This document shows positions 10,405-51,083 of a DNA stretch of 64,000 bases, one piece after another (the first letter of the stretch is position 1; each line of letters opens with the position of its first letter). The notes beneath the pieces are model-generated. The model was not told the DNA's origin and searched no databases. It saw only the letters and a program-made list of their open reading frames with translations. The position numbers and the translations under genes were made by a program. The DNA comes from Paraspadella gotoi. Lineage: Eukaryota; Animalia; Chaetognatha. The stretch is from positions 23,304,776 through 23,368,775 of the forward strand of contig CM119265.1 of assembly GCA_051294375.1 (NCBI GenBank), read 5' to 3'.

Positions 10405-10896
10405 CGAAAGAAACTCGGAGCGTGTCGGTGGGGACGGTTGCGGACCCTGACGTGCGGCCGCGGTGATCGGGAGAGCAGAGAGGGCATGGCTCCCGACGCC
10501 CTCCGTCGTTTCAAAGGTGTTGAGAGGAGGCGGGGGGTGGTTCGTCGTCATCGTCGGCGCCTCGGTCCGCGTTGTTTCCATCATCGGCGTCTCCACCCGT
10601 TTTACCTCCGTCTTCGTCGCCTCCGTCGTCGTCGAGATGGTCGTCGTCATCGAGATGTTCGTCGTCGTCGTCGAGTAGGTCGTTGTCAGCAAGACAGTCG
10701 TCCCCGTCGAAGCGGTCGTCGGAGTAGTGAGGGGATCGACGAGGATGATGTGTAAGTCATATTCCCATCCCCTCACTGGACAAAAAAATGAAAGAGAAAA
10801 ACAAAAAATAATAAAAAATCGATGAAATAAAGTAGGCCATGGTAATAGGTTTGCAGATGACTAAGAACAAATTCTACCTCTTCTGTTTGTTGTCAT
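10405..10896 (-). CDS. Antisense ORF2 (Thr-rich, spliced): exons 10896-10878 and 10775-10405
   Basis: ATG overlaps the ORF1 stop (ATGA); a GT-AG intron joins MTTNRR to V-RGWEYDLHIILVDP plus a Thr-rich tract in frame; GTAAGA donor at 10404; similar layout at ~26, ~46 and ~48 kb. Confidence 0.55.
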
Positions 10897-13675
10897 GGGA
10901 GAGACGAATCCTCCGGAGCCCCGTCGAGTAGTTGCAAAACTATCGTCGAGATCCCCGGGGGAAGAGGTTGTTTCCCTTCCAAGAAAAATGGGAAATCCGT
11001 CACCAGAGTCTCGACTTCCCGAAAGGTGGGAGAAGGTGGCATGATTGGATGGAGGGGAGCTAATATGGAAGCAGGTGGAGAAGGACCAGGTTGAGAAAGG
11101 CCCTCCACCATCTCTTCGATCCAGGAGTCGGCCTCGGACGACGAGCATGGAGCTGGTTTCGTATCGTCGACCCAGTGAACGAGGGGGGTGGCCAGAGGAG
11201 CGCTCATGGTGGAGGGAGGAGGCGGGTCCTGAGGAAAAAGACAATCGGGGAAGATGCCCTCCGCAGGGGGGAGACTTTCTGGCGGACGAGGGGCCGGGAA
11301 GGTGATTTCCGGAATGGAAGTCTCCGGAACCGGAGTGGTCAAGGAAGACGTTTCCCGAAGGATGAGGTAGATTCGGGGGGGGAGGCGTCCCGAGTGGTGG
11401 AGGACGGAACCGCCACCTCTGAACGAAAGGGTAAGGAAGGTTCTGGGAGAGCAGGAGAGGGAGTGGTCTCACTCTCCTGCCAAACGATCTCTGGCGCGGC
11501 ACGACGTCGTTTCGGGGGACGCAGCTCGGCGGCGACAACTCCGCCCACTGGAGCCCGAGGAGGCGGGTGAAGAGGAGTCTGAATTGAGGTCTGAGTCGGG
11601 AGAGTCGGACCTCAGATCCCTTTCAATTGGGGGTTGATGGAGGTAAGGTCGAGGACAGACCAGGGGGTGGGTAGCGGGCATTTCCATCCCCGGTCCGAAG
11701 AAAATCCCCGGGAGGAAATTGGGAATAATGGTCTCAGCCACCCAGCTCCTGTTTTCCACCAAAGTCCGGGTTGCTGGGGCACATGAGGCGCCACGATGAC
11801 GGAGAAATTGGCGCCGGTTGATTAATGGGGGCGTGGGAGGGCGCGAGACCGGGTCCGGGATGGCGTGAGGCGGTGGTTGGTACCTAGGAGTAAAAGGAAA
11901 GAAATATAAAGATAAAGAAATGGGTAAATTAGAAATAAAACATAAATGAGAGTTCTAAAATAACATACGGGTAAGGAGGATCCTCCGAGTGGAAGATAGT
12001 GCTGGGCTCCACTATCTCGAAGGTGCCACAGAGGAAAGGCGGAGCGTTGAGAGGCCGAGGGGAGCGGGGAGTCATCATGGCGGTACCCCGAGATCCAAGG
12101 GGAACCGCCGAAGATCCACTGTTCCCACCGGACTTGACGCTCGGCCTCCGCCAGAAACTGACGATGAGGGTGAAGGAGCCGAACGACCAAGGCTCCGCAC
12201 CATGAATGTTGGGAGCGCCGGGGAAGCACTCCCACGTAGTTCCCCGGGACTCAGATGCAACCCCGCAGATCCTCTGTGGCCCCGACAGGGGGATCACGGT
12301 CGACTCGCCACCCCATGTGGGGAAAACAAGGGCAGCTGCGTCAACGGCCGGGTAGCTGAACAAGAAGGAAGGAAATCGAAATGAAAGAGTTGAGTCCAAA
12401 ACAAAATATAATTTTAATTTGAGACCAAAATAAAATATAATTTTAATTTGAGTCCAGAACAAAATATTAGTTTAATTCGAGTTCAAAGTGGAATATAAGT
12501 TTAATTAGTTATTTTATTGTTTTGTCGAATGTTGTGTTTTAAACAAAATATTAAGAGAAGCTTACCACAGTTCCAAAACAGTGTCGTGCGGAGGTATATA
12601 GAACCCTGGGGGGATCCCCGCACTCCGAGGTGTGCATTTCCTCTATGACAAATAGAGGAGGATCGGCGCACTGGCAGGTTCGTCTTTCTCGGCCGGCGAA
12701 GACGAAGACGCCGCCGCCTAGGGTCAGGCGGCGCGTGAGACGCAGCTCGAGAGTCAGGACCTCCGTGTGAAGCCGAGGAGTGTAGGGAGCCAGGAGAGCG
12801 ATGGGTGTGGGCCGGACGAAACTCGAGAAAATGAGAGACAGGACCCAGCGGAGTTGGTTGGAGTCTTGAATCTCGACGGGCGTTGCTGAGAGGCCGTTGG
12901 GAAGGAGTGCCGGCGGCCGAGGGGACAAAACCTCTGGAACAGCCAGAGGAGCCCCATCCTCGTCGAAGGCTTGGATAGCCAAGCCACCGACGAAAATGTA
13001 CTCCGTGGGCCCCGCACGACGAACTAAGAAAGCAGAAGAAAAATTGGGAACATTTAAAAGAAAGGAAAAAACCAAAAGAACATCAAAAAGAAAATCAGAA
13101 ATAAAATAAGCACCGAAGTAACCCAGTATTGTATAAATACAAGTAAAAAAGGCTATAAACAGGACCGAATTCCTCAAAATAAATGTATGTACAATTATAA
13201 CCCGAATGGATAATGGATATTCCTATTTTTAGACGTAAAACATATTATCAAATAGTTATTTTTATGTGACATAATAATCTCTTTGTTTAGAATAATAGTT
13301 AATAAAGGAGAGTTTTCTCCAAAAAGGATTTCTCGAGCATTTCGTCTTTTAATCAATTTGTCTTAATTAATTATTAGTTATTAATTATTAATTATTGATT
13401 AATCATTTCGTCTTTTAATCAATTTTAACCTAAATGTTGTACCGTTCTTATTATTATGGTAGTTATCCAAACCTTGCCAAGTTTCTAAACTGGTATGGAA
13501 ATTATTATTAGAATTACTGTTGTCACAACAAACTTAATAGCCCACGATATCCTAATCCTTATGTTATATTTGTTAACACGCCCTTACTACATTTATTGTA
13601 ATACTGTAGTTGACACCTATAAATGTACTGTACTTACATGAGTAGGATCCCAAAAAAGGCAAGGAGCAAAGCCAT
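10893..13675 (-). pseudogene. Antisense 4-exon accessory gene ORF1, copy 1 (13675-13638, 13023-12566, 12355-11969, 11883-10893), with frameshifts
   Basis: ACCATGG start; GTAAGT/GTAAGC/GTATGT donors; pyrimidine-tract YAG acceptors; boundaries conserved in other copies. Confidence 0.8.
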
Positions 13676-13938: not shown

Positions 13939-13947
13939 GGGGGAGGG
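13939..13947 (+). other. Polypurine tract (PPT)
   Basis: GGGGGAGGG directly before the LTR TGTAAC; also before 17532 and 51350. Confidence 0.88.
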
Positions 13948-14377: not shown

Positions 14378-16157
14378 GTAAAGACGAATTGTACCTATGT
14401 TAGGATTACGACGTCGGATTTTCGTGTGGCCCGTGGGAGTCGGATGGGGCCACGTTGAGGGGGTGGCCAACGGAGCGCTCATGGTGGAGGGAGGAGGCGG
14501 GAGATCTTGAGGAAAAAGAAAATCGGGGAAAATGCCCTCTGCAGGGGGGAGACTTTCCGGTGGACGAGGGGCTGGGAAGGTGATTTCCGGAATGGAAGTC
14601 TCTGGAACCGGAGGGGTCGAGGATGACGTGTCCCTAAGGATGAGGTAGATTCGGGGGGAGGCGTCCTGAGTAGTGGAAGAGGAAGGAGCCGCCACCTCCA
14701 GATGAGAGGGTAAGGGGGGTTCTGGGAGAGCAGGAGAGGGAGTGATCTCACTCTCCTGCCAAACGATCTCGGGCGCGACACGTCGTTTCGGGGGGTTTTG
14801 GAAGAATGTTTCTTTGGGGGACGAAACTCGGCGGCGACAGCCCCGCCCGCTGGAGTCCGTGGAGGCGGGGGAAGAGGAGTCCGAGTTGAGGTCCGAATCG
14901 GGAGAGTTGGACCTCAGATCCCTTTCCATTAAAGGTTGATGAAGATAAGGTCGAGGACAGACCAGGGGATGGGTAGCGGGCATCTCCATCCCTGGTCCAA
15001 AGAAAATCCCCGGGAGGAAATTGGGGTTAATGGTCTCAGCCACCCAGCTCCTATTCTCAACCAAAGTCCGGGTAGCCGGGGCACATGCGGCGCCACGGTG
15101 AAGGAGGAATTGGCGCCGGTTGTCTAGTGGGGGCGTGGGAGGGCGTGAGACCGGGTCTGGGACGGCGTTAGAAGGTGGTTGGTACCTAGGAGTAAAAGAA
15201 AAGAAATATAAAGAAAAAGAAATGGGTAAATTATAAACAAAACATAAATGATGAGAATTCTGAAGTAACATACGGGTAAGGGGGGTCCTCCGAGTGGAAG
15301 ATAGTGCTTGGCTCCACTATCTCGAAGGTGCCACGTCGAGGAAAGGGGGAGCGTTGAGAGGCCGAGGGGAGTGGGGAATCATCATGGCGGTACCCCGAGA
15401 TCCAGGGGGAGCCACCGAAGATCCACTGCTCCCACCGGACTTGACGCTCGGCCTCCGCCGGAAACTGACGGCGAGGGTGAAGGAGCCGAACGACCAGGGC
15501 TCCGCACCATGAATGCTGGGAGCGCCGGGGAAGCAATCCCACGTAGTTTCCGGGAACTCCGATGCAGCCCCGCAGATCCTCGGTAGCCCCGACGGGGGGA
15601 TCCCGGTCGACGCGCCACCCCATGTGGGGAAAACAAGGGCAGCTGCGTCGACGCCCGGGTAGCTGAACAAGTAGGAAGGAAATCAAAATGGAAAAGTAGA
15701 GTATAGGACAAAATATAATTTTATGTAACAGATTGAGAGAGAGAGGGAGTTCCAAAAGGNNNNNNNNNNNNNNNNNNNNNNNNNTAGCGAACGGAGATGG
15801 AAAGAAGGAAAAGGCGGGACGCCAGCCGCGTCGCGCGAGAGTCGCTCGTCCCCGCTTTTCGGACGAAAAAGGAGAAGGAGATAGAGACAGGGAAATAGAA
15901 GGAGGAGAAGATATAAAAGGTGAAGAAAAAGGAGAGCGGCAGAAAGTAGAGTAAGAGGAAGTAAGCAGTAAAGAGAAGAAAAGTCGTATACCACCCTGCT
16001 GTAAAAATCTTCATTTTTTTGTATTATCTACTTGAAATAAAAGAATAAACAAATAAACTCAAAACTACCTTCTTTCTTCTAAAAAACTTTTCACGTTGGA
16101 ACAAACGGTTCACTTCGAGCTAGCGAGTTGTTTTGTAGCGTTAGATGCTACAAAAAT

Positions 16158-16175
16158 TGGCGACCTTGCCAGGAT
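16158..16175 (+). other. Primer binding site, tRNA-Arg-like
   Basis: TGGCGACCTTGCCAGGAT 5 nt after the LTR end; resembles the tRNA-Arg PBS (TGGCGACC...) of 412/mdg1-type elements. Confidence 0.8.
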
Positions 16176-16859
16176 CGTGGCGAACGCAACTCGCACTCTG
16201 GCTCCTGAGGAGACCGGCCTTACTCTACGCTTCCATCATTAAACTCCATCCTCGTTCTTTTGGAGATCTTTCTGGCGGGTCTGCTAATTCCGATATGCAG
16301 AAGAATCGCCAGAACCCCCAGTTTCCTGGGAATTCGCCTTTGTTGAGACACCGACATTGGAACCCACACCAGTCCCCGGCCGCCGGGAATCCATCAGCTC
16401 CTGCCGACCCCGCCACACCCACAGGAGCGGATCGTGAGAGAGAGGAGCCATCATCCTGGCTTCTCCACTCCCCGACGTCGTTCCCCTCACCCGTGCGCTC
16501 CTACCTCACCATCCGGAGACCAAGGGGAACTGTCTGTCCGCGGCCTATTACCAGGCTTTCACTGTTAGTCGGAGACTTGGTTACGCGACAGGAGAGCTTC
16601 AGCCAACAAATGGGAGTGGTGATGGAGGAACTCAACAACAACAATCATTCTGAGGTGAGCGAGAGAGGTGTTGGATGGAGGAGTTGGTTGATGAAGTGAC
16701 ATGCCTGCGCCGGCGAGCAACCCGACTGGAGCCGCGCGAGAGTGAGGAGGACGGAGCGGTGTTGGAGGAGCGTCGGCAGCCAAGGTTGCTCAGGACAGCC
16801 AGTGACCGCTGTGCAGGTTCAGTCGCCGCTGGAGGGAGCAGTACAAACCCTTCGTCTCA

Positions 16860-17340
16860 CTGCGCCGCGTAAAACCCTGACTTTCCTCGTTATACTGATG
16901 GAGATTCCATTCGCTGCCTTCTCAGCAGCGTTTGAGGGTGAGGCACAGGCTTGTGAGGTTCCACGGAAAAACTGGAGAGCAAAGTTCGTCGCTCTCTTGA
17001 AGGGATCGGCCTCGACCCTGCCGCTAAACTTCGTTATCAGAGGAACCGTCATCAACGTACGAGGACGTGCGCGACCATCTTGTCAGACTTTGGAGCGAGA
17101 GCAGGATGTGCGCACGCTATCGACTGTTGGAACGCCTCCAAGGAGGAAGGTGAGGGCCTTACAGCTTTTCGCTGTCAGGCTGAGAAACTTGACCGTTTTA
17201 AAGCGTACGGTCAGGAATACACCAGCCGACAGATAGAGGACAAGGCCCTGGAGATTTTTCTTGAACAAATCTCAAAGGGGAGCTTGCGACAAATGCGGTT
17301 GAGATTTCCCAAACAGCTGGGACGAGGCTGTAAGATTGCA
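16860..17340 (+). pseudogene. gag: gag capsid-like remnant
   Basis: FAAFSAAFEGEAQACEVPRKNWRAKFVALLKG...AYGQEY aligns with the gag-like ORF at 20126-21239; lies downstream of the PBS. Confidence 0.75.
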
Positions 17341-20125
17341 ATTAAAGTGATCTTACCGTCCTTTAAATAGGTGGCATCTCCCCTGATCGATCTTTCAATA
17401 AAGTTAACTTGGGTGGCCAGGTTGAAACAAATGAGGTGAGATGCGTCAATTTGACGACGTCATAATGAAGCGATGAAATCGGGAACCCTTTCTCGGCTGA
17501 GGAACAGCTGTTTTTTCTTTGTGGGGGAGGGTGTAACGGATTGAGAGAGAGAGGGAGTTCCACAAGGGGGGACGGAGATAAAAGGAGGAAGGCGGGACGC
17601 CAACCGCGCGGCGATTCTCCAAGAATCGCTCGCCGCATTTTCCGAGAATCGCCTTTCTCCGCGAACTGCAATTCTCGGAGAAAGGAGAAGGAGATAAAGA
17701 CAGGGAAATAGAAAGAGGAGAAGATATAAAAGTCAAGGAGGAAAGGAAGCGACACAGTGAGAGGAAAAAGACGTAAGAGAGGCATGAAAAATAGACCATC
17801 ATGCTGTACAAAATTTTTTAATGTTTTATCTACTTGTAACCAAAGAATAAATAAATAAACTCAAAACTACCTTCTTTCTTCTAAAAACTTTTCACGTTGG
17901 AACCAAACGGTTCACTTCGAGCTAGCGAGTTGTTTGTAGCGTTAGATGCTACATTTAATTTGAGTCCAGGACAGAATATAATTTTAATCCAGGACAAAAT
18001 ATAATTTTAATTTGAGTCCAGAACAAAATATTGGTTTAAATCGAGTTCAAAATGAAATATAAGTTTAACGAGTTATTTTATTGTTAATCGAATGTTGTGT
18101 TTTAAACAAAATATTAAGAAAAGCTTACCACAGTTCCGAAGCGGTGTCGTGCGGAAGTGTATAACACCCTGGGGGGATCCCCGCACTCCGAGGTGTGCAT
18201 CTCCTCTATAACGAATAGAGGAGGATCGGCGCACCGGCAGGTTCGTCTCTCGAGCGGCGAAGACCCCGCCGCCTAGAGTCAAGCGGCGCGTGAGATGTAG
18301 CTCGAGAGTCAGGACCTCCGTGTGAAGCCAAAAAGTGTAGGGAGCCAGGAGAGCGGCGGGTGTAGGCCGGACGAAGTTCGAAAAAATGAGGGACAGGACC
18401 CAGCGGAGTTGGTTGGGGTCCTGGATCTCGATGGGCATTGCCGAGAGGCCATTGGGAAGGAGTGCCGGCGGCCGAGGTGACAAAACCTCTGGAATGGCCA
18501 GAGGAGCCCCATTCTCGTCGAAGGCTCGGATGGCCAGGCCCCCGACGAAAATGTACTCTCTATGAGCCCCGCACGACGAACTAAGGAAGCAGAAGGAAAA
18601 TGGGGGAACATTTAAAAGAAAGGAAAAAACCAAAAGAACATCGAAGAGAAAATTAGAAATAAAATAAGCACCGAGGTAACCCAGTATTGTATAAATACAA
18701 ATAAAAAGGCTATAAAAAAAAAAAAACCGAATTCCTTAAAAATAAATGTTGTATGTACAATTATAACCCGAATGAATAATCAAAATTATTCCTAATTTTA
18801 GACGTAAAACATATTATTCAATAGTTATTTGTTATGTGACATAATAATCTCTTTGTTTAGAAAAATAGTTTTCTCCAGAAAAGGATTTCTCGAGCATTCC
18901 GTCTGTTGATCAATTTGTCTTGATTAATTGTTAATTATTAATTATTGATTATTGATTGATCATTTCGTCTCTTAATCAATTTCAACCTAAATGTTGTACC
19001 GTCATTATTATTATATTAGTTATCTAAACCTTGCCAAGTTTTTAAACTGGTACGGAAATTATTATTACTGTTGTCACAACAAACTTAATAGCCCACAATA
19101 TCCAAATTCTTATGTTATATTTGTTAACACGCCCTTACTACATTTATTGTAATACTGTAATTGACACCTATGAATGTACTGTACTTACATGAGTAAGATT
19201 CCGAGAAGGGCCAGGAGCAAAGCCATGGTAGGGTACCGAGAGGAAAATAATTGATAAATTTGTGAGTAGAAAATTTGGTGTCGAGAAAAAATGGAAATGA
19301 GTGAAAGTGATCTTACCGTCCTTTAAATAGGTGGNNNNNNNNNNNNNNNNNNNNNNNNNNNNNNNNNNNNNNNNNNNNNNNNNNNNNNNNNNNNNNNNNN
19401 NNNNNNNNNNNNNNNNNNNNNNNNNNNNNNNNNNNNNNNNNNNNNNNNNNNNNNNNNNNNNNNNNNNNNNNNNNNNNNNNNNNNNNNNNNNNNNNNNNNN
19501 NNNNNNNNNNNNNNNNNNNNNNNNNNNNNNNNNNNNNNNNNNNNNNNNNNNNNNNNNNNNNNNNNNNNNNNNNNNNNNNNNNNNNNNNNNNNNNNNNNNN
19601 NNNNNNNNNNNNNNNNNNNNNNNNNNNNNNNNNNNNNNNNNNNNNNNNNNNNNNNNNNNNNNNNNNNNNNNNNNNNNNNNNNNNNNNNNNNNNNNNNNNN
19701 NNNNNNNNNNNNNNNNNNNNNNNNNNNNNNNNNNNNNNNNNNNNNNNNNNNNNNNNNNNNNNNNNNNNNNNNNNNNNNNNNNNNNNNNNNNNNNNNNNNN
19801 NNNNNNNNNNNNNNNNNNNNNNNNNNNNNNNNNNNNNNNNNNNNNNNNNNNNNNNNNNNNNNNNNNNNNNNNNNNNNNNNNNNNNNNNNNNNNNNNNNNN
19901 NNNNNNNNNNNNNNNNNNNNNNNNNNNNNNNNNNNNNNNNNNNNNNNNNNNNNNNNNNNNNNNNNNNNNNNNNNNNNNNNNNNNNNNNNNNNNNNNNNNN
20001 NNNNNNNNNNNNNNNNNNNNNNNNNNNNNNNNNNNNNNNNNNNNNNNNNNNNNNNNNNNNNNNNNNNNNNNNNNNNNNNNNNNNNNNNNNNNNNNNNNNN
20101 NNNNNNNNNNNNNNNNNNNNNNNNN

Positions 20126-21239: not shown

Positions 21240-21269
21240 TATGATGGCAGAAATAGTTTATTTCATTAC

Positions 21270-24659: not shown

Positions 24660-27600
24660 ATTTTAGACAGTCACAGTATGCAAAAAGATGGTTGCAAAGC
24701 TTCCTGACGTCGAGTTATTCGACAAATGGGCTTACTACGATTTGGAGCTAGTACTCCCACTTTCAAAGAAGGAGATCGAGTCTCTATCGAAAATACTAAC
24801 TTACAGCCCACTGAGTCCGATATTTTTTTTTTTGTTAGCGCCCAGTTCTACAAGGACCATTTGTCATCACTAGGAAACTGAGTGACTGTAAACTATGTAT
24901 CTGCCCAGATGGTAAGAGTGACGGATCGGCAGAACTGGCCGCAAGAATGCCGAGTGGTCTCCATGCAATATCAAAACTGATTGCGGATTCCGTCGAATTC
25001 TACCCGAAAGAGGTGAAAAGCGGGAATGAAAACAGAACCTTCCGGTGAGAGAAAAATCCCGTTCAATTTACAAGACTAAGATCTAATAAATGAACGAAAT
25101 GAGCGGGATTTAGCATGAAAATAATTTCTAACTGCCGATAGATAAAGTACGGTAAGAAGTTTGGAATGTAAAATTAATATAAAAAACGGGGGCAAAAAAA
25201 TCACAACAGTAAAAGACAATGGGAAAAAGTAAATTGGTCTAAAACTAACATAGTAAAACTGCTAACAATAACAATTAAACGTTTTAATATAAAGTGAAAT
25301 AGTAAACAAAAAGGAAAATATTAAAGAGATGAATAGCGTTCCGGCGGGACTTCCGGCGCACGCCTCAGAGAACCGACGAGGAGTGCGGAGGTGGTGGTGG
25401 CGCCGGGGCGGGCGGTCGCGCGGCGATGGGCTGGAGATCAACCAGACCTCAATCTGCGCCCGCCCCTCCGAGATTCGTCCTCAGTGAACCGCAGTCGATG
25501 GCCGCTGGGATCATGGAATCTCGGCGACCAGACGCTGAAATGGCACGAGAAAGTGGCGTCGAGCTGCAAAGCGTCTCGATGCCGCTACGCTCGGCCCGAC
25601 CACGCGAGAGGATGACGAGGAGGACGATGACGCTCATGAGATCGCCAGCGGTGGAAAACAAATGCCTCCTCTCTGAGAAAAGCGAAAAAATCAGTTTAAT
25701 ATAAAATAAATAAAAAAGGAGAATTGAACATATATGTAAAGATAATAAAATTTTAAAACTGAACAGTAGAAAGATTGCCAAGAATGTTCCAGTCTTACCG
25801 AGAAATTCAGGCGCGCGTCGTGGGGACGGTGGCGGACCCTGGCGGGGCCGCGTAAAACGGGAGAGCAAGCAGAAGCCGGGCGTGCCTGCCGTCTCAGAAC
25901 GCGTCCCACCGGCGCTCGTCGTCGTCGAAGTCGCTCGCTCGCGTCCCGTCCGTCTCCGTCGTTCCTCGCCCTTCGCGCGATGCCCGTCGTCGTCGTCGCT
26001 TCGTCGACATCGGTCTCAGCCGTTCGTCGTTCCGCAACCAGTCGTGTCGCCATCGTTGTTCGTTAAGAGGAGCAGGGGTCGACTAAGATGATTTGAAGGT
26101 CGTACCCCATCCCTTCACTGGATGAAAAAACAAAAGCAAAGAAAGAACATAAAAAATAATAAAAAGTCGGCGAAAACAATAACATTGGTAATAGGTTGAT
26201 AGACACTAAGAACGAATTTTACCTCTTCTAGCTTGTAGTCATGGGGCAGAGGTCCTCCGGCCGCCCCGTCCAGAAGTTGTAAACAATGCCGTCGAGATCC
26301 CGGTTGAGGAGGGTGAGTCACCCTTCAAGAGAGAAAGGCAAGTCAGTCACAGGGTTCGATTCCGAGGTGGGAGACGGGGGCCATTGCACGATGCGAGCGG
26401 AGCGTGATGGAAGCGCCGGATGGCCGAGAGAGGCCGGATGAAGTACAGGCCCTCCACATCTGCGTCGATCCAGGATCGGACGCGACGGCCCGGAGGGCCG
26501 ACTCCGCGTCAGTCAATCCAGTGGATGAGGGGAGTTAGCCAGTAGTTGGATCGCTCCATGTGCGGGGGCGGAAGAGGAAAGATACCTGACATGGAAAAGA
26601 CTACAGAACGAAATGCCCTCGCGGCGGGGGAGACTCTCTGGGGACGATGGGAACCGCCGAAAGGTGATCTCCGGAACAGAGGTCTCGGAACGGAGGGCTT
26701 CGTAGGATGAGATCGTCTCCTGAGCGATAAGATATTACAATGACGAGGAGGACGTCAGGAGTCATGCGAAAAGAGCGAGAGCATGACGCCTCCATACGAA
26801 GAGATAGAGAGGCGTCGGCAGAGCAGCGAAGGCGGAGTGACCTCACTTCACTGCAAACATTCGCAGGCGGTCGACGGCGTTTTGGGCGGGAATTCTGCAA
26901 AGAATAGTTTCTGGCGGGATGCGAGCTCGCGCGCCGATTGGAGTCTGATGGAGGCGGGCGAAGAGATCCGAGTTTGAGGTCCGAGTCCGGAGAGTTGGAC
27001 GCTCAGATCCCTCTCCCTGAAAGAAGTTGATAGGGAGTTCGCGGGATGCGATCAGGGGATGGGTGTGAGGCATTCAACTCAACCCCCCCTGGTCCCGAAG
27101 AATATCCCCGAGGAGAAAGTTGGTATTCACCAGGTCTCAGGCCACCCACTCCTATTTCCCCGAAGGTGGAGTAACGGGGGAGCAGGGTGGCGCCACGGTG
27201 AATCGAGAAACTGGCGCCGAGTCAGAAGTGGGGGCGTGGAAGGCGCGCAGACCGGGTCCGGGATGGCATTGGAAGGTGTTGGTACCTAAGAGTAAAGAGA
27301 AAAGAAACTTAATGAAAAAAAGAAATGGATAAATTGTAAACAAAGCATAAACAATGATGAGAATTCTGAAATAAACATACGGGAAAGGGGGGTCCTCCGA
27401 GTGGAAGATACGTGCTTGGTTCCTATCTCGAAAGGTGCCAGCGTGGGAAAAGGCGGAGCGTTGAGAGCCGAGGGGAGCGAACGGAGTCATCATGGGGTAC
27501 CCGAGATCCAAGGGAACCGCCGAAAATCCACTGATCCCACTACGGAATTGACGCCGGCGTCCTCCGGAAATGACGGGCGCGGTGTAGGAGCCGAACGAAC

Positions 27601-29860
27601 CACGGCTCCACACCAAGAATGCTGGGAGCGCGGGAAGGATACCCACATAGTTTCCCGCGGAGCCGATGCGAGCCCCGCAGATCCTCGGTGCACCCGGACG
27701 GGCGGATCCCTGTCGACGCGCCACCCGATGTGGGGAAGAACAGGGGAAACGGCGTCGACGCCCGGTAGCTGAATAAGTAGAAAGGAAATCGAAATAGAAA
27801 AGTTGAGAGGATGACAGAAGATACAATTATTTTAACTTGAGAGTCAAAGTTAAAAGTCAAGTTAAGGATAAATATAATTTTAAATCGATTTCAAATTGAA
27901 ACAAAGTTTAAGAGAGTGAGGTCGAATGAATGTGTTTTAAACAAAATATCAAGAAAAGCTTCACCACAGTCCCGAAACGAAGCCGCGCCGAGGTATACGG
28001 ATCCTGGGGGGATCCCCGCACCCGACGTTGCATCTCCTCTATAACGAATAGAGGAGGATGGCGCAGTGGCAGGTCTGGCGTTCTCGAGCGACGAAGACCC
28101 CCGCGCCTAGGGCATGCGGCGGGTGAGACGCAGCTCGAGGGTCAGAACCTCCGTATGGAGCGAGGAGTGTAGGAGCCCAGAAGTACCCAGGCGCGGGCCG
28201 AATATGGATCAGACATAAGAAGTTTGAGAAAATGAGGGAGACAGACCCAACGCGAGTTGTTTGCGGTCCTGGACCTCGACAGGGCGTTGCCGAGAGGCGT
28301 GGGGGAGAAGTGCCGGCCGGCGCGAGGGGCGTAACAACTCTGGAATGTCCAGAGGAGCACCATTTCAATCGTCGAGGGCCGGATGGCCAGACACGAGCGA
28401 AGAATACTACTACCCTGTGAGCCGCCGCCATGAACTGGAAAAAGCAGAACGGAAAGTGGGGACTCTTTAAAAGAGAGGAATAAAACAAAAGGACATCGAA
28501 AAAAATTAGAAATACAAATGAAGCACGAAGTAACCAGTATTGTAATAACATACCAAATAAAAAAGGCTTAAAAATAAAAAACGAATTCTTAAAAAAAAAA
28601 TGTCGTATGTCGAATTGTAATCAATATGAATAATCAGGATTATTCCTGTTATTGGACATACCATATTATCCAATATTATTGTCACGTGATTTAATAATCT
28701 CTTTGTTTAGAGTGAGCGTAGTTAACAAAGGAGAGCTCTCTTCTCCAAAAAAAGGATTTCTCGAACATTCCGTTTCGGATCGAATCTTGTCTCTTAATTA
28801 ATTATTACTATTAATTTTGATTAATCGATTGAATCATTTTCATCTTTTAATCATTTCAACATAAATGTTCGTGTTGTCATTATTATCAATAGTAGCTATC
28901 AAACATCTTTCAAGTTTTTGACTAGCATGGAACTTATTTATTGTTATCCATAACAACCTTATTATACAAACTTAACTAGCGCCCACAAATATCAAAATTA
29001 ATGTTATATTTGTTTTAACAATGCCTAACTAATTTGTTTAATACTGTTAACTTGACCCTTAACGAATGTATTGAACTTACATGAGCAGGCGAAGCCAGCG
29101 AGCAAGGCCCAAAACGAATGAGCCGAAAGGTGAGAAATGAGGCATGATGAGGTAGCCGGGAGAAAAATAAATGATAATCTACGTGAGGGGAAAGTTTGTT
29201 GCGAGGCGAAAATGAAAACTGCAGTGAAAGTGATCTTACCGCCATTTAAATCAGCCGTTGGCATCTCCCTCAACCGATACTTTCATAGAGTTACTTGGGT
29301 GGACAGGTTGAAACCAATGAGGTGAATACGCCATTTTGACGCCATCCGTAATAAACGATGAGATCGGGAAACTCCGTTTCCTTCGCTGAGGAACACTGTT
29401 TTTTCTGCCGGCGGAGGGTGTAAAGATTCGAGAAGAGAGAGGGAGGTTCAAAGAGAGGAACGGAGATGGAAAGAGGAAAGGCGGACGCCCAGCGCGAGTC
29501 GCGCGAGAGTCGCTCGCACGCTTTTTCGGACGGAAAAAGAAAGGAGATAGAGACAGGAAATAGAAGGATGGAGAAATATAAAAGGTGAAGGAAAAAGGAG
29601 AGCGGCAAGAGCAGAAAGTAGAGTAAGAGGGAAGACTTAGAGACAGTAAACCAAGAGAGAATAAAAGTCACGTATTAAGCCCCACGCTGGCTGTATTAAA
29701 ATTTCATCTTTTTGTATTATCTACATTGATAGAATTAAAATAAAACAACATAACCACTGCAAAACTACCTTCTTCCTTTCTAATAATATTCACGTTGGAA
29801 CCAAACGCGTTCCTTCGAGCTCAAGCGAGCTTTGGTTATCTGAAGCGTTAGAATGCTACA
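24660..29860 (+). mobile_element. Gypsy 3' half, copy 3: integrase tail, full antisense cassette, PPT, 3' LTR (29419-29860); indel-noisy
   Basis: Collinear with 44430-51753 minus its internal duplication. Confidence 0.85.
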
Positions 29861-39194: not shown

Positions 39195-40195
39195 GATGGT
39201 GATGATGGTTTTTGGATTTTCTTTAAATGTCGCGCGCGATTGATTTGATTTGAGTTTTTTGGCGCAGCGAAGGGGATTAAGATTGGAGAAAAAAAGAGAA
39301 CGGTTATGACACACTCACCGCCTCCTCAATCTACAAAATCTATGTTTACATATATTTGTAAATTGATTAATCCATTACGCTGCCACCAGATAGTTTAATG
39401 TAGATATATAGATAGTCTAATTACTAGCAAAGAACATTAGAGTCGTGAATATCTTCTAGCTCATAGATTATTGTAAATAGAGAATGTACGGTTTGTGGTC
39501 ACTTACCGTGTGAGAGGCAGGAGCTTTGAGCAGAGATGAGGGAGAGAGGAGTGAGCAAAGATAGCGCTTGAGGGCCGCTTTTATACTAGTTAATGAAGCT
39601 ACTCCATCCAGCAACCACGCGCAAACCATGAGGCTGCTGGATCGTTAAAGCCTAATCTTTTATAACCAAATTATGTAACAGATTGAGAGAGAGAGGGAGT
39701 TCCAAAAGGAGGAACGGAGATAAAAAGAGAAAAGGCGGACGCCAGCGCGTCGCCGAGAATCGCTCGCCGCTTTTTCGAGAACGCTCGCCGCTTTTTCGGA
39801 GAAAGGAGAAGGAGATAGAGACAGGAGAATAGAAGGAGGAGAAGATATAAAAGGTGAAGGAAAAGGGAGAGCGGAAGGAAGCAGAGAAAAGTAAAGGAGA
39901 GAAAAGTCGTAGTACCACCATGCTGTAAAAAATTTCCTTTTTGTATTATCTACTTGTAATAAAAGATAAACAAATAAACTCAAACTACCTTCTTTCTTCT
40001 AAAAACTCCCACGTATAACTAAACGGTTCACGCAACAAAAAGAAAATCAGTTAGAGAAATCGCGCCGGTAATCACAAGGAGTCGGAAGCTGAGAAGGCTG
40101 ACCCTGCAGCCGTCCTGAACCCTGATCAAGTTCAGGAGCCAGCAAAGTGGACAGATTGGCGAAATTGGCAGGAAACGGATGAAGACCTGCAGGTA

Positions 40196-40730
40196 TTGAA
40201 AAAATGGCTAACGGAGGGAGCTCCAGGAAAAGCCCAAGCCCGACGGTATAGTCCGGCTTTGAGATCATATTATGCATCGTTGCCACAGTTAGTCTGCATG
40301 ACGGAGTCATTGTCAGAAAATGGACTGATGCCATGGACCCAGATAAAGAGCTCAATTTACCAGTGGTGCCAGAGGATCGTGTGGTTGAATTATTATTCAA
40401 TGCTCATGAACTCCAAGGGCATCCAGGGGTCACTAGGATGCGGGATCTAATCAGGATAAGTACTATTGGTACTCACGCGATGTCACCATCAATGAATATG
40501 TGATGACATGCAATATTTGTGCCAGAAGGAGGAAAGCAAACCTCCGGCACCTTGGTCCAGGACAAAGCTTCTTTTTTAACGAACGAGTAGCTATGGACAT
40601 AAAAGTAATGACAAAACCATCGAGACATGGTTTTGTGGCAATCTTACTGATAGTAGATTATTTTACTAGATTTGTGTCACTGACAAATCTAAATCACAAA
40701 CCGCAGAGGAAGTGTGGGCTAAGGCGTAGT
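40196..40730 (+). pseudogene. pol: Gypsy integrase N-terminal part (HHCC zinc finger and first Asp of DDE)
   Basis: AHELQGHPGV...TCNICAR...ERVAMDI...LLIVDYFTRFV, with frameshifts. Confidence 0.88.
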
Positions 40731-43637: not shown

Positions 43638-43968
43638 AGCTATATTTTAAGCTGAAAATCAACTTTTTTATATTAAATATAGTTTTTTTAATTTTTAACC
43701 CAGTTAAATGAAAGAATTTTTAAAAAATGATTCTATATTTTCTTTTATCAACTTTTGACGACGGTATTCAAATCTGCAAATCAAAATTAGAAAAGCCTTT
43801 TTTTAAAATTTTTGATTTTATAAGGATAGTTACTATATATAAATTAGCCTACTGCGAAAATTAAAAAACATAAAATAATTTTTTTTTACAAATTAATGTT
43901 CACTGATGGTATGTTGTTCATAAGATTGGCTTTAGAATTTTCGTATGTAACTTTCACTACGCCTTAGT

Positions 43969-44871
43969 GTGGGCGGCCTACATGGACAACTGGTGTGCGT
44001 ATTTTTGGCGCCAGTTTCGCCATCCACACACGGATTTCGGCGTGCAGTTCGCCGCTCAAAAAGGCTACCCACCTTTTTAAATTATGGAATTCACAAGACC
44101 CATACTGTCTCTTTCCATCCTCAAAGTGATGGTTTGGCAGAAAGACAAATCCGAACCCTAAATAACACCTTGTCTAAAATCCTGATGGAGGTTGAGGTCG
44201 AGCAGGAGAAATTAGGTGTGAAGGAGCAAACTGATTGGGGAGATTTGACCCGGAAAGTTCAGTTTGCTATGAATGCTTTACCATGTAAATTCACAGGGTT
44301 TAGTCCATTTCGAGTCTTAACCGGACAAGACATGAATGTCCCGTTGTCATTGACCTTTCCATTGGAAGACGGACGGCAGGTGCGTGAAGAGTTACCTGGG
44401 GCAATTAGGGGATTGCAAGTTAGACAGTCACAGGTATTCAAAGCTGTTGCAAAGCATTCTGACGTTGAGTTATCTCGACAAAAGGCTTACTACGATTTGC
44501 GGGCTAGTACTCCCACTTTCAAAGAAGGAGATCGGGTCCTCTATCGAAAATACTACCTACAGCCCAATGACGTCCGATCGTTTAGCGCCCAGTTCTACAA
44601 GGAACCCTTTGTCATCACTAGAAAACTGAGTGATGTAAACTATGTCATCTGCCCAGGTGGTAAGAGTGACGGGTCGGCAGAACATGGCCGAAAGGAATGC
44701 CGAGTGGTCCATGCCAATCAGATCAAACTGATTGAGGATTCCGTCGGGGTTCCTACCCGAGAGGTTGAAAAGCGGGATGAAAACAAACGACCATTCCGCG
44801 AGAGAAAAGTCCCTGTTCATTTACAAGACTATGATCTAACTAATGAACGAAATGAACGGGATTTAGTTTGA
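43969..44871 (+). CDS. pol: Gypsy integrase core/C-terminal fragment (homology from ~44075)
   Basis: GIHKTHTVSFHPQSDGLAERQIRTL (catalytic Glu), TGFSPFRVLTG, RQKAYYD, FKEGDRVL, EPFVI (GPY/F-like), VVHANQIK. Confidence 0.92.
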   Translation: MGGLHGQLVCVFLAPVSPSTHGFRRAVRRSKRLPTFLNYGIHKTHTVSFHPQSDGLAERQIRTLNNTLSKILMEVEVEQEKLGVKEQTDWGDLTRKVQFAMNALPCKFTGFSPFRVLTGQDMNVPLSLTFPLEDGRQVREELPGAIRGLQVRQSQVFKAVAKHSDVELSRQKAYYDLRASTPTFKEGDRVLYRKYYLQPNDVRSFSAQFYKEPFVITRKLSDVNYVICPGGKSDGSAEHGRKECRVVHANQIKLIEDSVGVPTREVEKRDENKRPFRERKVPVHLQDYDLTNERNERDLV

Positions 44872-45099
44872 ACAATTTCTGACTGGCCGATAGATAAAGT
44901 AAGGTAAGAAGTGTGGAACAAAGTAAAATAAATATAAAAAACACCGGGGGCAAAAAATAACAAACAGTAAAAGGCAATGGGAAAAAGTTTAAGTTTGCCA
45001 AAAAACTAACATAGTAAAAACTGACTAACAATAACGAGAATAACGAAATAACGTTTTAATGTAAAATTGAAATATTAAACAAAGAAAAATTTAAAGAGA

Positions 45100-48076
45100 T
45101 GTATAACGTTCCGGCGGGACTCCGGCGCCGCGCCTCAGAGACCGACGAGGAGGTCGAGGAGGTGGTGGTGGCGCCGGGGCGGGCGGTGGCGGCGATGGGT
45201 GGAGATCCACCAGGAACTTCAATATCTCCGCCCCCGCCTCCGTATGAGTCGTCCTCACGTGAACCGTTCATCGATGGCCGCCGGATCATCGATATCTCTG
45301 GGCGACACAGAAGACCGGCTAATGAAATGGCGAAAAAAAGGCAATGCGTCGAGTGCAGACGTCTCGATCGCGCTACGCTAACGTCTGGGACGCACGACAG
45401 CAGCGTCGAAAGTAAGAATGACGAGGGGACGATGAACGCCACGTTGATGCGCCCCCGCGGTGAAAACAAATCGCTCTCTGGAGAAAGGAGAAAATCAGTT
45501 TTAACTAAAAAATAAATTAAAAAAGGAGAATGAGATATATGTAAAAGATATAAAAATATAAAACTGAAGAGAAAGATGCCAAGAATTGTTCCAGACTCTT
45601 ACCAGAAGAAATTCAGAGCGCGTCGGTGGGGACGGTGGCGGGCCCTGACGCGCGCCGCAGTAATCGGGAGAGCAAGAGAGGGCGTGGCCCCCGTACGCTC
45701 TCCGTCGTCGTGGTAAGGGGCGTACGTCACCGTCGGCGCCTCCGTCGTCGTCGTCGCCTTCGTCGACATCGCCGTTGTCGTCGTCGCCTTCGTCGCCTTC
45801 GCCGACATCGCCGTCGTCGTCGTCGCCTTCGTCGTCGTCACCACCGTCGTCGTCGCCATCGTTGTCGTCGTTGTTGAGGAGGAGAGGAGGTCGACTAGGA
45901 TTTTGAAGGTCGTACCCCCATCCCTTCACTGGATGAAAAACAAAGAAAAAGAAAGAAAAATAAAAAATAATAAAAAGTCGGCGAAAAAAAATGAACCATG
46001 GTAATAGGTTGATAGACGACTAAGAACGAATTTTACTCTTCTCTTGTAGTCATGGGGGAGGAGAGTCCTCCGGCGCCCGTCAAGAAGTTGTAAACAATGC
46101 CGTCGAGATCCCCGGTGATGGAGGGTGAGTCCCTTCCAAGAGGAAAGGGAAGTCAGTCACCAGGGTCTCGACTTCTCGAAAGGTGGGAGACGGGGCATGA
46201 CCGGATGGAGAGGAGCGATGATGGAAGCCGGTTGGGAAAGACCGGATGAGTAAGGCCCTCCACCATCTCGTCGATCCAGGACTCGGACGACGGGCCCGGA
46301 GCCGACTCCGCGTCATCAATCCAGTGGATGAGGGGAGTGGCCAGTGGATCGCTCATTGGTGCGCGGAGGCGGGAAAGAGGAAGATCCTGGAGATGGAGAT
46401 CGAGAAAATGCCTCTGCGCGGGGGGGAGACTCTCTGGGGGACGAGGGACCGGAAAGGTGATCTCCGGAACAGAGAGAGGTCTCCGGGAACCAAAGGCAGA
46501 AGAGAAAAGATTAGGCAGGTTGTTTTATCTTGAAATCTTGTTTCTCCTGAGTTTTAGGATGAATGATTGTAAATTCTGACGAGGAGTGACGTTCCCTCGT
46601 GGGTGTAGTCAGTGTGGAAATGTCGAAGGAATCTGCGACGGAGGAGCAGCTGGGACGCCCTCCATACGAAGAGGTAGTTGTAGGGGGGTTCCTGGTCCAG
46701 TAAGTGGAGATGCAGGATGAGTGGAGTTATGTGACCTCACTCTCCTGCCAAACAATCTCGGGCGTGACGCGACGGCGTTTTGGGGGATTTTGGAAAAATG
46801 TTTCTCTGGGGGATGGAGCTCGGCGTCTACTGGAATCTGTGGAGGCGGGGGAGGAGGAATCCGAGTTGAGGTCCGAGTCTGGAGAGTTGGACCTCAGATC
46901 CCTCTCCCCTGGAAGGTGATGGTAGGGAGGCCGAGGATTGACCAGGGGATGGGTGGTGGGCATTGCCATCCCTGGTCCGAAGAAGATCCCCGGGAGAAAG
47001 TTGGTGTTAACGGTCTCAGCCACCCAGCGCCTACTTTCCCCCGAAGTCGGAGTAGCGGGGGTGCATGTGGCGCCACGGTGAATGAGGAATTGGCGCCGAG
47101 TCAGTAGTGGGGGCGTGGGAGGGCATGAGACCGGGTCCGGGACGGCGTTGGAAGGTGGTTGGTACCTAGGAGTAAAAAGAAAAGAAATTTAAAGAAAAGG
47201 AAATGGATAAATTATAAACAAAGCATAAATGATGAGAATTCTGAAATAACATACGGGAAAGGGGGGTCCTCCGAGTGGAAGATAGTGCTTGGCTCCACTA
47301 TCTCGAAGGTGCCACGTCGAGGAAAAGGGGAGCGTTGAGAGGCCGAGGGGAGCGGGGAGTCATCATGGCGGTACCCCGAGATCCAAGGGGAGCCGCCGAA
47401 GATCCACTGCTCCCACCGGATTTGACGCTCGGCGTCCTCCGGAAACTGACGGCGCGGGTGTAGGAGCCGAACGACCAGGGCTCCACACCATGAATGCTGG
47501 GAGCGCCGGGGAAGTAGGCCCACATAGTTTCCGGGGACGCCGATGCAGCCCCGCAGATCCTCGGTGGCCCCGACGGGGGGATCCCTGTCGACGCGCCACC
47601 CCATGTGGGGAAAACAAGGGCAGCTGTGTCGACGCCCGGGTAGCTGAAGAAGTAAGAAAGAAATTGAAAAGTTGAGAAAAGAACAAGATATAAATTTTAA
47701 ATCGAGTTTAAAATGAAACAAGTTTAACAAGTTATTTTAGTGTTAAGTCGAATGGGGTGTTTTAAACAAAACATCAAGAAAAGCTTACCACAGTTCCGAA
47801 GCGGTGTCGTGCCGAAGTGTACAAAATCCTGGGGGGATCCCCGCACTCCGATGTATGCATCTCCTCTATAACGAATAGAGGAGGATCGGCGCAGTGGCAG
47901 GTCTGTCGTTCCCGAGTGACGAAGACCCCGCCGCCTAGAGTCATGCGGCGAGTGAGACGTAGCTCGAGAGTCAGAACCTCCGTGTGAAGCCGAGGAGTGT
48001 AGGGAGCCAGGAGACCAGGGGGCGTAGGCCGGATAAAGTTCGAAAAAATGAGGGACAGAACCCAGCGGAGTTGGTT
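45100..48076 (-). pseudogene. Antisense cassette copy 4 (exon 2 to 47789, exon 3 47643-47255, exon 4 from 47165, Thr-rich ORF2 and distal exon)
   Basis: Same splice sites as other copies; exon 3 is an open 389 nt. Confidence 0.78.
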
Positions 48077-48276
48077 NNNNNNNNNNTCGTCGTTGTTGAG
48101 GAGGTGAGGGGGTCGACTAAGATAATCTGGAGGTCGTACCCCCATCCCCTCACTGGATAAAAAAATAAAGGAAGAAAGAAAAATAAAAAATAATAAAAAG
48201 TCAGCGGAAAAGGATGAACCATGGTAATAGGTTTATAGACGACTAAGAACGAATTTTTTACCTCTTCTGTTTGTAG

Positions 48277-51083
48277 TCATGGGGGAGGCGAGTCCTCCGG
48301 CGCCCCGTCAAGAAGTTGTAGGACAATGCCGTCGAGATCCCCGGGGGTGGAGGGTGAGTCCCCTTCCAAGAGGAAAGGGAAATCCGTCACCAGGGTCTCG
48401 ACTTCTCGAAAGGTGGGAGATGGGGGCATGACCGGATGAAGAGGAGCTAGAATGGAGGCCGGATGGGAAAGACCGGATGGAGTGAGGCTCTCCACCATCT
48501 CGTCGATCCAAGACTCGGACGACGGGCATGGAGCCGACTCCTCGTCATCAATCCAGTGGATGAGGGGGGGCGGCCAATGGATCGCTCATGGTGGAGGGCG
48601 GAGGCGGAAAATCCGGAGGCGGAAAATTGGAAAAAATGCCCTCTGCCGGGGGGAGACTCTTGGGGCGACGAGGGACCGGAAAGGTGATCTCCGGAACAGA
48701 GGTCTCCGGAACCGGAGGGGTTGAGGATGAATCGTCTCCGGGATGATATAAATCGAGAGGAGGCGTCGGAGTCTGGAGAAGAGGGAGAGCTGACGCCTCC
48801 ATACGAAGAGGTAGAGGGGGTTCAGGGAGAGCAGGAGAGGGAGTGACCTCACTCTCCTGCCAAACATCTCGCGGCGTCGCGACGCGTTGTGGGGATTCTG
48901 AAAGAATGTTTCTTGGGGATGGAGCCTGGCGCCCCCCGATTGGGTCTGTGGAGGCTGGGGAAGAGGAATCCGAGTTGAGGTCCGAGTCCGGAGAGTTGGA
49001 CCTCAGATCCCTCTCCCCTGAAAGAAGTTGATAGGGAGGTCGGGGATGGATCAGGGATGGGTGTGGGCACCAACATGCCCTGGTTCGCAAGAATATCCCC
49101 GGGGAGGAAATTGAGATTCACGGTCTCCGCCACCCAGCTCCTACTTTCTCCCCGAATTGAAGTGGAGTAGCGGGGAGCAGGTGGCGCCACGTGAGGAAGA
49201 GAATTGGCGCCGAGTCAGAAGTGGGGGCGTGGAAGGGCGCGAGACCGCGTCCGGGATGGGCGTTGGAAGGTGGTTGGTACCTAGAGTAAAGAGAAAAGAA
49301 ATTTAATGAAAAAAGAATGGATAAATTGTAAACAAAGCATAAAATGATGGAATTCTGAAATAACATACGGGAAAGGGGGGTCCTCCGAGTGGAAGATAGT
49401 GCTTGGCTCCACTATCTCGAAGGTGCCGCGTTGAGGAAAAGGGGAGGTTGAGAGGCCGAGGGGAGCAGGAGTCATCATTGCGGGTACCCGAGATCCAAGG
49501 GGAGCCGCCGAAAATCCACTGCTCCCACCGGATTTGACGCTCGGCGTCCTCCGGAAACTGACGGCGCGGGTGTAGGAGCCGAACGACCAGGGCTCCACAC
49601 CACAGAATGCTGGGAGCGCCGGGGAAGTACCCACATAGTTTCCGGGGACGCCGATGCAGCCCCGCAGATCCTCGGTGGCCCCGACGGGCGGATCCCTGTC
49701 GACGCGCCACCCATGTGGGGGAAAACAGAGGGCAACTGCGTCGACGCCCGGGTAGCTGAATAAGTAGAAAGGAAATCGAAATGAAAAGTTGAGAGGAGGA
49801 CAGAATAATTATTTTAACTTGAGAGTCAAAGTTAAAAGTCAAGTTAAGGATAAAATATAAATTTTAAATCGATTTCAAATTGAAACATAAGTTTAACGAG
49901 TTATTAGTGTTAGTCGAATGGTGTGTTTTAAACAAAATATCAAGAAAAGCTTACCACAGAGTCCCGAAGCGAAGCCGCGCCGAGGTGATAACATCCTGGG
50001 GGGATCCCGCACTCCGACGTGTGCATCTCCTCTATAACGAATAGAGGAGATCGCGCAGTGGCAGGTCTGTCGTTCTCGAGCGACGAAGACCCCGCCGCCT
50101 AGGGTCATGGCGGCGGTGAGACGTAGCTCGGAGTCAGAACCTCCGTATGGAGCCGAGGAGTGTAGGGAGCCAGGAGTCCAGGGCGTGGGGCCGAATAAGT
50201 TCGAAAAAATGAGGGACAGGACAGCGGACGCTTATAGTGGGGTCCTGGACCTCGACGGGCGTTGCGGAGAGGCCGTGAGTGAGAAGTGCCGGCGGCCGAG
50301 GTGGTAAAGACTCTGGAATGGCCAGGGGAGCACCATTTTCGTTGAGGGCCCGGATGGCCAGGCCACCGACAAAAATATACTCTCTGTGAGCCCCGCACGA
50401 CGAACTAAAAAAGCAGAAGGAAAATGTGGGAACTTTTAAAAAGAGAGGAATAAACCAAAGGAACATCGAAAAGAAAATTAGAAATAAAAATGAGCACCGA
50501 AGTAACCCGGTATTGTATAAATACAAATAAAAAAGCTAAAAATAAAAACCGAATTCCTTAAAAAATAAATGTCGTATGTACGATTATAACCCAAATGAAT
50601 AATCAAGATTATTCCTGTCATTAGACGTAAAACATATTATTCAATAGTTATTTTTACGTGACTTAATAATCTCTTTGTTTAGAATGATAGTTAACAAAGG
50701 AGAGCTTTCTCCAAAAAAGGATTTATCGAGCATTCCGTTTTCGATCAATTTGTCTTAATTAATTCTTAACTATTGATTATTGATTATTGATTGATCATTT
50801 CGTCTTTTAATCAATTTCAACCTAAATGTTGTACTGTCCTTATTATTATAGTAACTTTCTAAACATGGTCAAGTTTTTGAACTTGTATGGAACTTATTAT
50901 TGTTGTCATAACAAACTTAATAGCCCACAATATCCAAAATTTAATATGTTATATTTGTGAAAACGCCCTACTACATTTGTTGTAATACTGTAATTGACAC
51001 TTGTGAATGTACTGTACTTACATGAGCAGGAGCCAAGAGGCAAGGGCCAGGATGCATGAGCCGAGAGTGAGGAGTGAGGCCAT
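48277..51083 (-). pseudogene. Antisense ORF1 copy 5 (51083-51022, 50404-49955, 49755-49369, 49280-48277)
   Basis: MASLLTLGSCILALASWLLLI-SSCGAHREYIFVGG; conserved GT-AG sites; scattered indels. Confidence 0.8.

Follow-up and report, generated by a model that had tools for sequence, protein, structure and literature searches.

An antisense gene whose reading frame is preserved by selection lies between the integrase and the 3′ LTR of an LTR retrotransposon, at the env position, where the initial annotation of this DNA had placed it. Splicing, as predicted from the DNA, would join a 38-nt first exon to a second one and so give the product a hydrophobic start, which we read, with somewhat more confidence than doubt, as a cleaved signal peptide on a secreted, anchorless accessory protein of ~630 residues. 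We call the host element Ty3/gypsy, an assignment drawn from its LTR features and integrase type.

The host element

The window, that is, the whole 64,000-nt stretch of DNA that was analysed, is eukaryotic and repeat-rich, has several gaps, and contains one recurrent LTR family. Seven pieces of this LTR were found, six of which have TG…CA ends, the remaining one being cut short, and a polypurine tract precedes four of the seven. A primer-site-like sequence starting with TGG lies 5 nt past the LTR at 16152 and is followed by gag-like pieces. Taken together, the LTR ends, the polypurine tracts and the primer-site-like TGG orient the element on the plus strand. Target-site duplications of 4 bp accompany two of the three LTR-bounded pieces, and that of the third has one mismatch.

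The copy at 39674-51753 begins with a truncated 5′ LTR (39674..40033, +), which is 96.5% identical to the 3′ LTR, and closes with a polypurine tract and a TG…CA-bounded 3′ LTR (51338..51753, +; the LTR itself at 51350-51753). Its integrase consists of H2C2, rve pieces and the p58 C-terminal domain, followed by a stop and then by the antisense cassette. The N-terminal part of the integrase (40040..40720, +) holds the H2C2 and rve pieces, both below the Pfam cut-off, and the C-terminal half (43959..44871, +; Pfam Integrase_p58_C, E 1.6e-6) is the last pol domain, directly before the cassette. The top PDB match of the integrase is Ty3 Gag-Pol (E 9e-4), and its 16 database matches have identities of 24-40%. 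Together with the initiator motif of the antisense gene (see below), these matches hint at an invertebrate animal as the host, which is no more than a guess. A decayed reverse transcriptase piece at 8360-8830 (PDB E 0.072) may come from a different family. The order of integrase (+), cassette (-), tract and LTR occurs in two copies, the one at 24663-29860 repeating the element order of that at 39674-51753, and in a third the cassette adjoins the tract and the LTR.

Two further observations concern this region. The integrase is split by a 3.2-kb insert (40713-43966) with short inverted ends and an 8-bp duplication, GTGTGGGC, which we take to be hAT-like, judging by the length of the duplication. 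After the integrase, a sense ORF (45099-45515, +) with an acidic stretch, PPPPY and CxxC overlaps the last antisense block.

Exon-intron structure of the antisense gene

The splicing of the gene was inferred from DNA motifs and from the agreement of phases, and is described here for the copy that starts at 19226. Its predicted internal promoter comprises a TATA-like box (TATTTAAAG; 19321..19329, -) and, in three of the four exon-1 copies, the A of a TCAKTY motif, which we take to be the initiator consensus, 31 nt beyond the box. The predicted 5′ UTR (19227..19298, -) is free of ATG, and the ATG of exon 1 is the first one downstream of the TATA-like box in all four copies. Coding exon 1 (19189..19226, -) is 38 nt long, starts in ACCATGG, encodes the predicted signal-peptide core (translation MALLLALLGILL plus 2 nt) and ends at a phase-2 donor, with GTAAGT following. 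Intron 1 (18581..19188, -) is 608 nt long, GT-AG and AT-rich, with a pyrimidine tract that ends in TTAG at 18581. Exon 2 (18129..18580, -) would supply the cleavage site, C-G-A/H, and then the start of a Cys/His-containing domain, and in the assembled sequence it departs from the selected frame near 18250, having stayed open for 110 codons beyond the junction. As the initial annotation had proposed, the 38-nt exon meets exon 2 in frame across a predicted phase-2 junction, reading SSCGAHREYIF.

Intron 2 (15663..18128, -), with its donor GTAAGC at 18128 and its acceptor before 15662, is split by a nested element (15724..17953, +) that belongs to the same family and has lost internal sequence; it is flanked by a 4-bp target duplication, TTTA, and consists of an LTR, a PBS-like site, gag-like pieces, a polypurine tract and a second LTR. 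Exon 3 (15274..15662, -; 389 nt) is open, carries an SCPC motif and shows the strongest constraint of all exons. It is followed by intron 3 (15186..15273, -; 88 nt) and by exon 4 (14460..15185, -), which is cut short in this copy and contains CRRR and PKRR clusters and a lone donor-like site, GTGAG, at 14751. All introns are GT-AG, have 24-28% GC and pyrimidine tracts, and exons 1-4 overlap nothing on the opposite strand. No poly(A) signal was found between the exon-4 stop and exon 5, and the structure of the mature mRNA is therefore uncertain.

One sequencing run yielded 362 contigs over 9400-14400, one of which crosses intron 3 unchanged, and among the 15 contig joints listed over the same region none falls at an intron. 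As the run may be of DNA, these results are silent on splicing. The repeat at 9488-9840 has very high depth in that run and is apparently another element within the cassette. Just upstream of the antisense TATA-like box, TGACG-type motifs at 51230-51290 (-), presumably CRE-like, are kept between copies. We also considered an upstream coding exon ending at a GTAAG beside the TATA box, and rejected it for its stops and its want of an in-frame ATG. No in-frame upstream ATG able to feed exon 2 from another donor-like site was found.

Copies of the cassette

There is no intact gene copy in the window; the 19226 copy is frame-shifted and cut in exon 4, and the others are more broken. The second four-exon copy (10893..13675, -) has its exons at 13675-13638, 13023-12566, 12355-11969 and from 11883 to the stop at 10893. 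It is broken in exons 2, 3 and 4, the frame being lost ~20 nt past the exon-2 acceptor, and its 38-nt exon 1 reads MALLLAFFGILL. The third copy (48088..51188, -) has many indels and a 62-nt exon 1 (51083-51022), MASLLTLGSCILALASWLLL, which is longer by 24 nt or 8 codons. Both of these exon-1 variants had been quoted in the initial annotation and were confirmed. A partly duplicated cassette, extending from the 3′ part of exon 2 through exon 5 into a further GC-rich block, occupies 45060..48076 (-) and ends at ATTAAA at 45060. The fourth copy (25288..29252, -), between an integrase end and an LTR, is indel-ridden, with dozens of 1-nt indels relative to the others, and its exon 1 (29145) is 65 nt long and of phase 2.

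Exon 5 (10405..10775, -) is mucin-like and Thr-rich (28% Thr) in a selected frame, and its Pfam match to Mucin (E 0.26) is below the cut-off. The four-exon gene ends in a stop codon that shares bases with an ATG (ATGA; 10893-10896 and 48277-48280, -), a possible case of stop-start coupling, and in two of four copies this ATG is in frame with exon 5 by way of a weak donor 19 nt on. Past exon 5, the antisense frames 10282-10049 and 9432-8860 (-) are protein-like, occur in one copy only and are unlike the other copies; perhaps they represent a second cassette variant. One of these frames is preceded by CACCATGG. The two stretches of them that were scanned against Pfam gave no match.

Selection on the reading frame

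The antisense gene is real, and its frame is preserved by selection. When substitutions between copies were counted by codon position, with the indel-ridden fourth copy left out, all five stretches tested had an excess at third positions of the proposed minus-strand frame (21/8/37, 25/12/57, 10/6/35 for exon 3, 48/33/93 and 19/8/41; p 7e-5 to 4e-8). The three introns had no codon-position bias (p 0.32 for intron 1, with counts of 24/33/23, and 0.14 and 0.66 for the others), and exon 5 gave 5/2/12 (p 0.016). Likewise, dN/dS was 0.06-0.40 in all 11 comparisons of exons 1-5, as against 0.65 and 1.29 in two intron controls. The values were 0.14 for exon 1 (12 codons), 0.12-0.35 for exon 2, 0.06-0.09 for exon 3, 0.17-0.29 for exon 4 past the internal GTGAG donor, and 0.13 for exon 5. 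At each of the three junctions, the splice phases (2, 0, 2) match the independently selected frames, for which the chance expectation is 1 in 27.

Introns that are antisense to the packaged genomic RNA can survive retrotransposition, and those of the present gene would persist because they lie on the strand opposite to it. Intron 1 diverges by only 7-9% between copies, compared with 21-26% at synonymous sites of the exons, a difference that might be due to CpG or else to an RNA signal under constraint in the genomic strand.

The hydrophobic first exon

The initial annotation held that hydrophobicity and phase are kept in exon 1 while the sequence changes. Phase 2 is indeed found in every copy, and in three of the four the hydropathy exceeds that of shuffles, but the claim does not extend to the fourth. 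Mean hydropathy was 3.12, 2.94 and 2.02 in the three cleaner copies, with p values of 0.0001, 0.0034 and 0.0006 against nucleotide shuffles of the same exon, while the error-ridden copy at 29145 was within chance (p 0.55). None of the six differences between the two 38-nt exon-1 copies falls at a second codon position. We also collected the 51 mini-exons of the window, defined as stop-free ATG-to-donor stretches of 30-80 nt on either strand; mean hydropathy reached at least 2 in three of them, and all three are exon-1 copies.

Three of the four copies have an uninterrupted N-terminal hydrophobic core (by a criterion of 7-15 or more residues), and three of the four, by inspection, have C-G-A before the predicted cleavage point, with small residues (C, A) at -3 and -1. 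The claim of a hydrophobic core followed by small residues at these positions thus stands, and the signal-like start would comprise 18 residues in the 19226 copy and 26 in the copy with the long exon. No K or R precedes the core; a positively charged n-region, which is common though not obligatory in signal peptides, is absent.

The T-rich stretch between the exon-4 stop and exon 5 reads as hydrophobic while carrying no codon signal (9/8/8, p 0.96), so that composition alone can yield such runs in this DNA, and exon 1 passes the composition control that this stretch illustrates. Two other uses of the T-rich stretch were rejected: a second signal peptide, whose ATG reaches the selected frame in two of four copies and which has no codon signal, and read-through of the stop codon into it, again for the lack of a codon signal (9/8/8).

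The predicted product

From the exon lengths, the four exons would encode ~630 amino acids. After the signal-like start come ~380 residues, eight of whose cysteines are shared, two CxC motifs among them, and then a C-terminal part with a Pro/Ser-rich linker carrying RRR and PKRR(R), an acidic tail made up of the last 100 residues, and a shared stop. The CxC motifs that had been named as TCHC and SCPC are present, but the 19226 copy reads TCRC at the first of them, the TCHC version being that of the 47789-48076 copy. SCPC is an exon-3 motif, located at 15662 and thus beyond the coordinates (18129..19226) given in the initial annotation. Exons 2-4 contain no membrane-spanning stretch, the best 19-residue hydropathy being 0.4-1.6, and no shared N-glycosylation sequon, since NRS in exon 4 of two copies is missing in a third.

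Searches for relatives gave no homologue. Pfam returned no family at E up to 1 for any of the five gene stretches, exon 2 had no match at E 0.001 among 1.84 billion representative proteins, and none of 274 candidates for exon 3 among longer proteins held up. In metagenome and viral contigs, pattern matches were confirmed in 0 of 139, 0 of 14 and 0 of 56 cases, and in 0 of 99 for the integrase. The best ESM Atlas matches (0.88 and 0.76) are to unnamed clusters and are leads at most. In the PDB, one query gave no match and another gave two, at E 0.15 and 1.7, which were both rejected. AlphaFold models, as suggested in the initial annotation, were built for exons 2 and 3 singly, but with pLDDT values of 35.9 and 32.6 they are uninformative and too poor for a fold search. 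The blank is partly explained by a poorly sampled lineage, as even the integrase has relatives at only 24-40% identity. By sequence, and with no membrane-spanning stretch in exons 2-4, the product thus appears to be without a relative in the databases searched and unlike F, gB or FAST-like fusogens, in keeping with the earlier view that it differs from F and gB.

Fate of the product

The secreted accessory protein that we favour would be made as follows. Transcription would start from the internal TATA/initiator promoter ~160 nt inside the 3′ LTR (box at 51188; LTR start at 51350), and removal of three introns would join the 38-nt exon 1 to exon 2. The signal recognition particle (SRP) would capture the 12-20 uninterrupted hydrophobic residues, leading to co-translational entry into the ER and cleavage of the signal peptide after C-G-A. 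Exons 2-4a would fold into a domain with the eight shared cysteines, and a furin-type protease could trim the protein at its basic clusters. A further pointer to the secretory pathway is the Thr-rich exon of the cassette. It is possible, though doubtful, that the protein, once released, acts not as a fusogen but on the cells or defences of the host in the surroundings of the cell that expresses it; a product without an anchor is not a fusogen of known type. Cell-to-cell spread, which had been put forward as a role, is not what an anchorless four-exon product suggests.

The initial annotation missed the resemblance of the C-terminal half to a nuclear regulator (PKRR, SP/TP-rich sequence, acidic tail). 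The protein might be an intracellular regulator whose hydrophobic start is bypassed or serves as an uncleaved anchor with a cytosolic C-terminus, whose CxC..H..C clusters bind zinc, and whose PKRR and acidic tail act as nuclear import signal and activation domain, respectively. We regard this, the main alternative, as unlikely, although it deserves serious weight: PKRR(R) is present in three copies, with RRR ahead of it; exon 4 has 17-22% Pro, 11-12% Ser and phosphorylation-type SP/TP motifs; the last 150 residues contain 14% D/E against 3% K/R; W, F and L are conserved in the tail (W/F/L helices); and CCACCATG stands ahead of the last 104 codons in several copies. Moreover, most antisense proteins of retroelements known so far are nuclear; Grande GENE23, HBZ and APH-2 are so described in passages of PMC7264820 and PMC10186651. 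The basic clusters would, however, suit furin sites equally well, and secreted proteins also have P/S-rich acidic tails. No ATG intervenes between the promoter-like pair and that of exon 1, an exon whose hydrophobicity is under selection. By established topology rules, a stretch of 12 residues would make a short reverse anchor, and the basic residues after it are few.

Alternative splicing from the internal donor of exon 4 to exon 5 might yield a membrane form beside the soluble one, which we consider fairly improbable. Such a form would begin with the signal peptide and the Cys domain, continue through the basic cleavage site and a stalk rich in Thr, and end in a downstream anchor, and would resemble an envelope-like or attachment glycoprotein. 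GTGAG stands at the same place of exon 4 in all five copies, ~10 codons past the PKRR cluster, and is the exon's only GT(A/G)AG, although protein constraint on Q-E-S-E may preserve it. Its phase is 1 in all four readable copies, as exon 5 requires, but such a match arises by chance in one case out of three. Exon 5, rich in Thr and under selection, lacks a start that could be assigned to it with confidence; yet the ATG overlapping the exon-4 stop also leads in frame to exon 5 in two of four copies, and exon 4 past the donor is itself selected (dN/dS 0.17-0.29). Hydrophobic stretches of 1.85 and 2.11 occur in the next block of two copies, but the hydrophobic frame of one of these mismatches the donor phase, and the frame after exon 5 is not fixed. 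It would take a further step, and is quite improbable, to see in the antisense intron-containing gene a new kind of envelope substitute, unrelated to F, gB or FAST proteins, in which two donor choices in exon 4 give a secreted protein and a surface glycoprotein. Were this reading true, a Ty3/gypsy lineage could attach to or act on other cells.

That exon 1 is hydrophobic as a by-product of a pyrimidine-rich strand, with the true start at another place, or that the cassette is a passive fragment of a host gene, is highly improbable: hydrophobic runs do arise in this DNA from the translation of T-rich non-coding tracts (9/8/8, p 0.96), and the exon-1 test rests on 12 codons, but the shuffle test controls for composition, only 3 of 51 mini-exons are hydrophobic, and selection operates between element copies and not on a single host gene.

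Comparison with known systems

Env genes are in sense orientation. Envelope proteins of the errantivirus F and HSV/gB types have a signal peptide, an ectodomain that ends in a transmembrane helix, and folds that can be recognised, as passages of PMC13524379 describe them. The present gene resembles them in its predicted signal peptide, its cysteines, its basic furin-like sites and its place after pol; unlike them, exons 1-4 lack a C-terminal transmembrane anchor, the stop is in exon 4, and there is no sequence match. The sORF2 or FAST-like proteins of the MDG1 group, in the part of PMC11952523 that deals with them, have 63-107 amino acids, a central transmembrane helix and myristoylation, and are always forward. 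What is shared with sORF2 is a non-env accessory gene of a Ty3/gypsy element that is aimed at membranes; a product of ~630 amino acids, encoded in antisense and without a central helix, sets the present gene apart. Bdelloid rotifer ORF3 (GDSL, DEDDy), according to passages of PMC5408684, encodes recognisable enzymes at the env position, and is thus also a non-env gene at that place in animal Ty3/gypsy elements, whereas the present gene has no such enzyme domain.

According to the relevant portions of PMC7264820 and PMC11963269, plant Ty3/gypsy elements commonly carry antisense ORFs between pol and the 3′ LTR, and such ORFs are found also in Boty of Botrytis. There, such additional ORFs are described as nuclear or predicted to bind DNA, often with TRP28, and as of unknown origin; an annelid survey, in its relevant passage, merely repeats this plant view (PMC8220671). 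Grande gene23 is driven by a promoter of its own, and its product is nuclear (passages of PMC7264820). With Grande gene23, RIRE2, Retand TRP28, PvRetro13 and Boty, the present gene shares position, antisense orientation, a Ty3/gypsy host and unknown origin, and an upstream promoter of its own, shown for Grande, is predicted here. It differs from the plant and fungal ORFs as they are described there in having three or more introns, a signal-like start divided between two exons and no Pfam match; TRP28 (PF04195) was absent from all five stretches in the Pfam search at E up to 1. Neither PMC7264820 nor PMC11963269 uses the word 'intron' in its main text.

Two retroviral systems offer partial parallels in the passages of PMC10186651 that treat them. 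HBZ and APH-2/3/4 of deltaretroviruses (HTLV) are spliced antisense products that are nuclear, with a promoter in the 3′ LTR, and HBZ is a bZIP protein. Like them, the present gene has a predicted spliced antisense transcript from the 3′ end, with a first exon that alters the N-terminus; unlike them, its promoter-like pair stands ~160 nt inside the LTR, and it has no bZIP and no sequence likeness. HIV-1 ASP is antisense, overlaps env, is membrane-associated, and has ~190 amino acids with two predicted membrane spans. The two genes are alike in being antisense at the env position and rich in Cys and Pro, and ASP goes to membranes. The present one, in contrast, has introns, a single N-terminal hydrophobic stretch and no overlap on the opposite strand.

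Antisense extra genes are thus known already. In the literature searched, outside of which lie Repbase-type annotations and subscription papers, where an earlier mention may exist, we found none in a Ty3/gypsy element that combines several introns with a split signal peptide. Extra genes at the env position determine whether an LTR retrotransposon stays within its cell or acts on others. If our reading is true, a selected, multi-intron antisense gene entering the secretory pathway would constitute a new class of accessory product, and the survival of opposite-strand introns through reverse transcription would mean that elements can retain whole host-style genes. With a first exon of 38 nt and others of 390-1000 nt, such genes would be missed by ORF-length scans of consensus elements and may therefore be under-counted. 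A review of 2020, in the passage on this subject, calls for precisely such a search (PMC7264820).

Other features of the window

Exons of a WD40-repeat host gene at 33780-37350 (+; Pfam WD40, E 0.0004, below the cut-off) have the same style of GC-rich exons and AT-rich introns as the cassette. The ORF at 5633-6367 (-) has no Pfam match but bears some resemblance to the N-terminal portion of DNA polymerases of the Maverick/Polinton type. At 20127-21257 (-) and 52680-53500 (-) there are gag-like frames that belong to a related family and run the opposite way.
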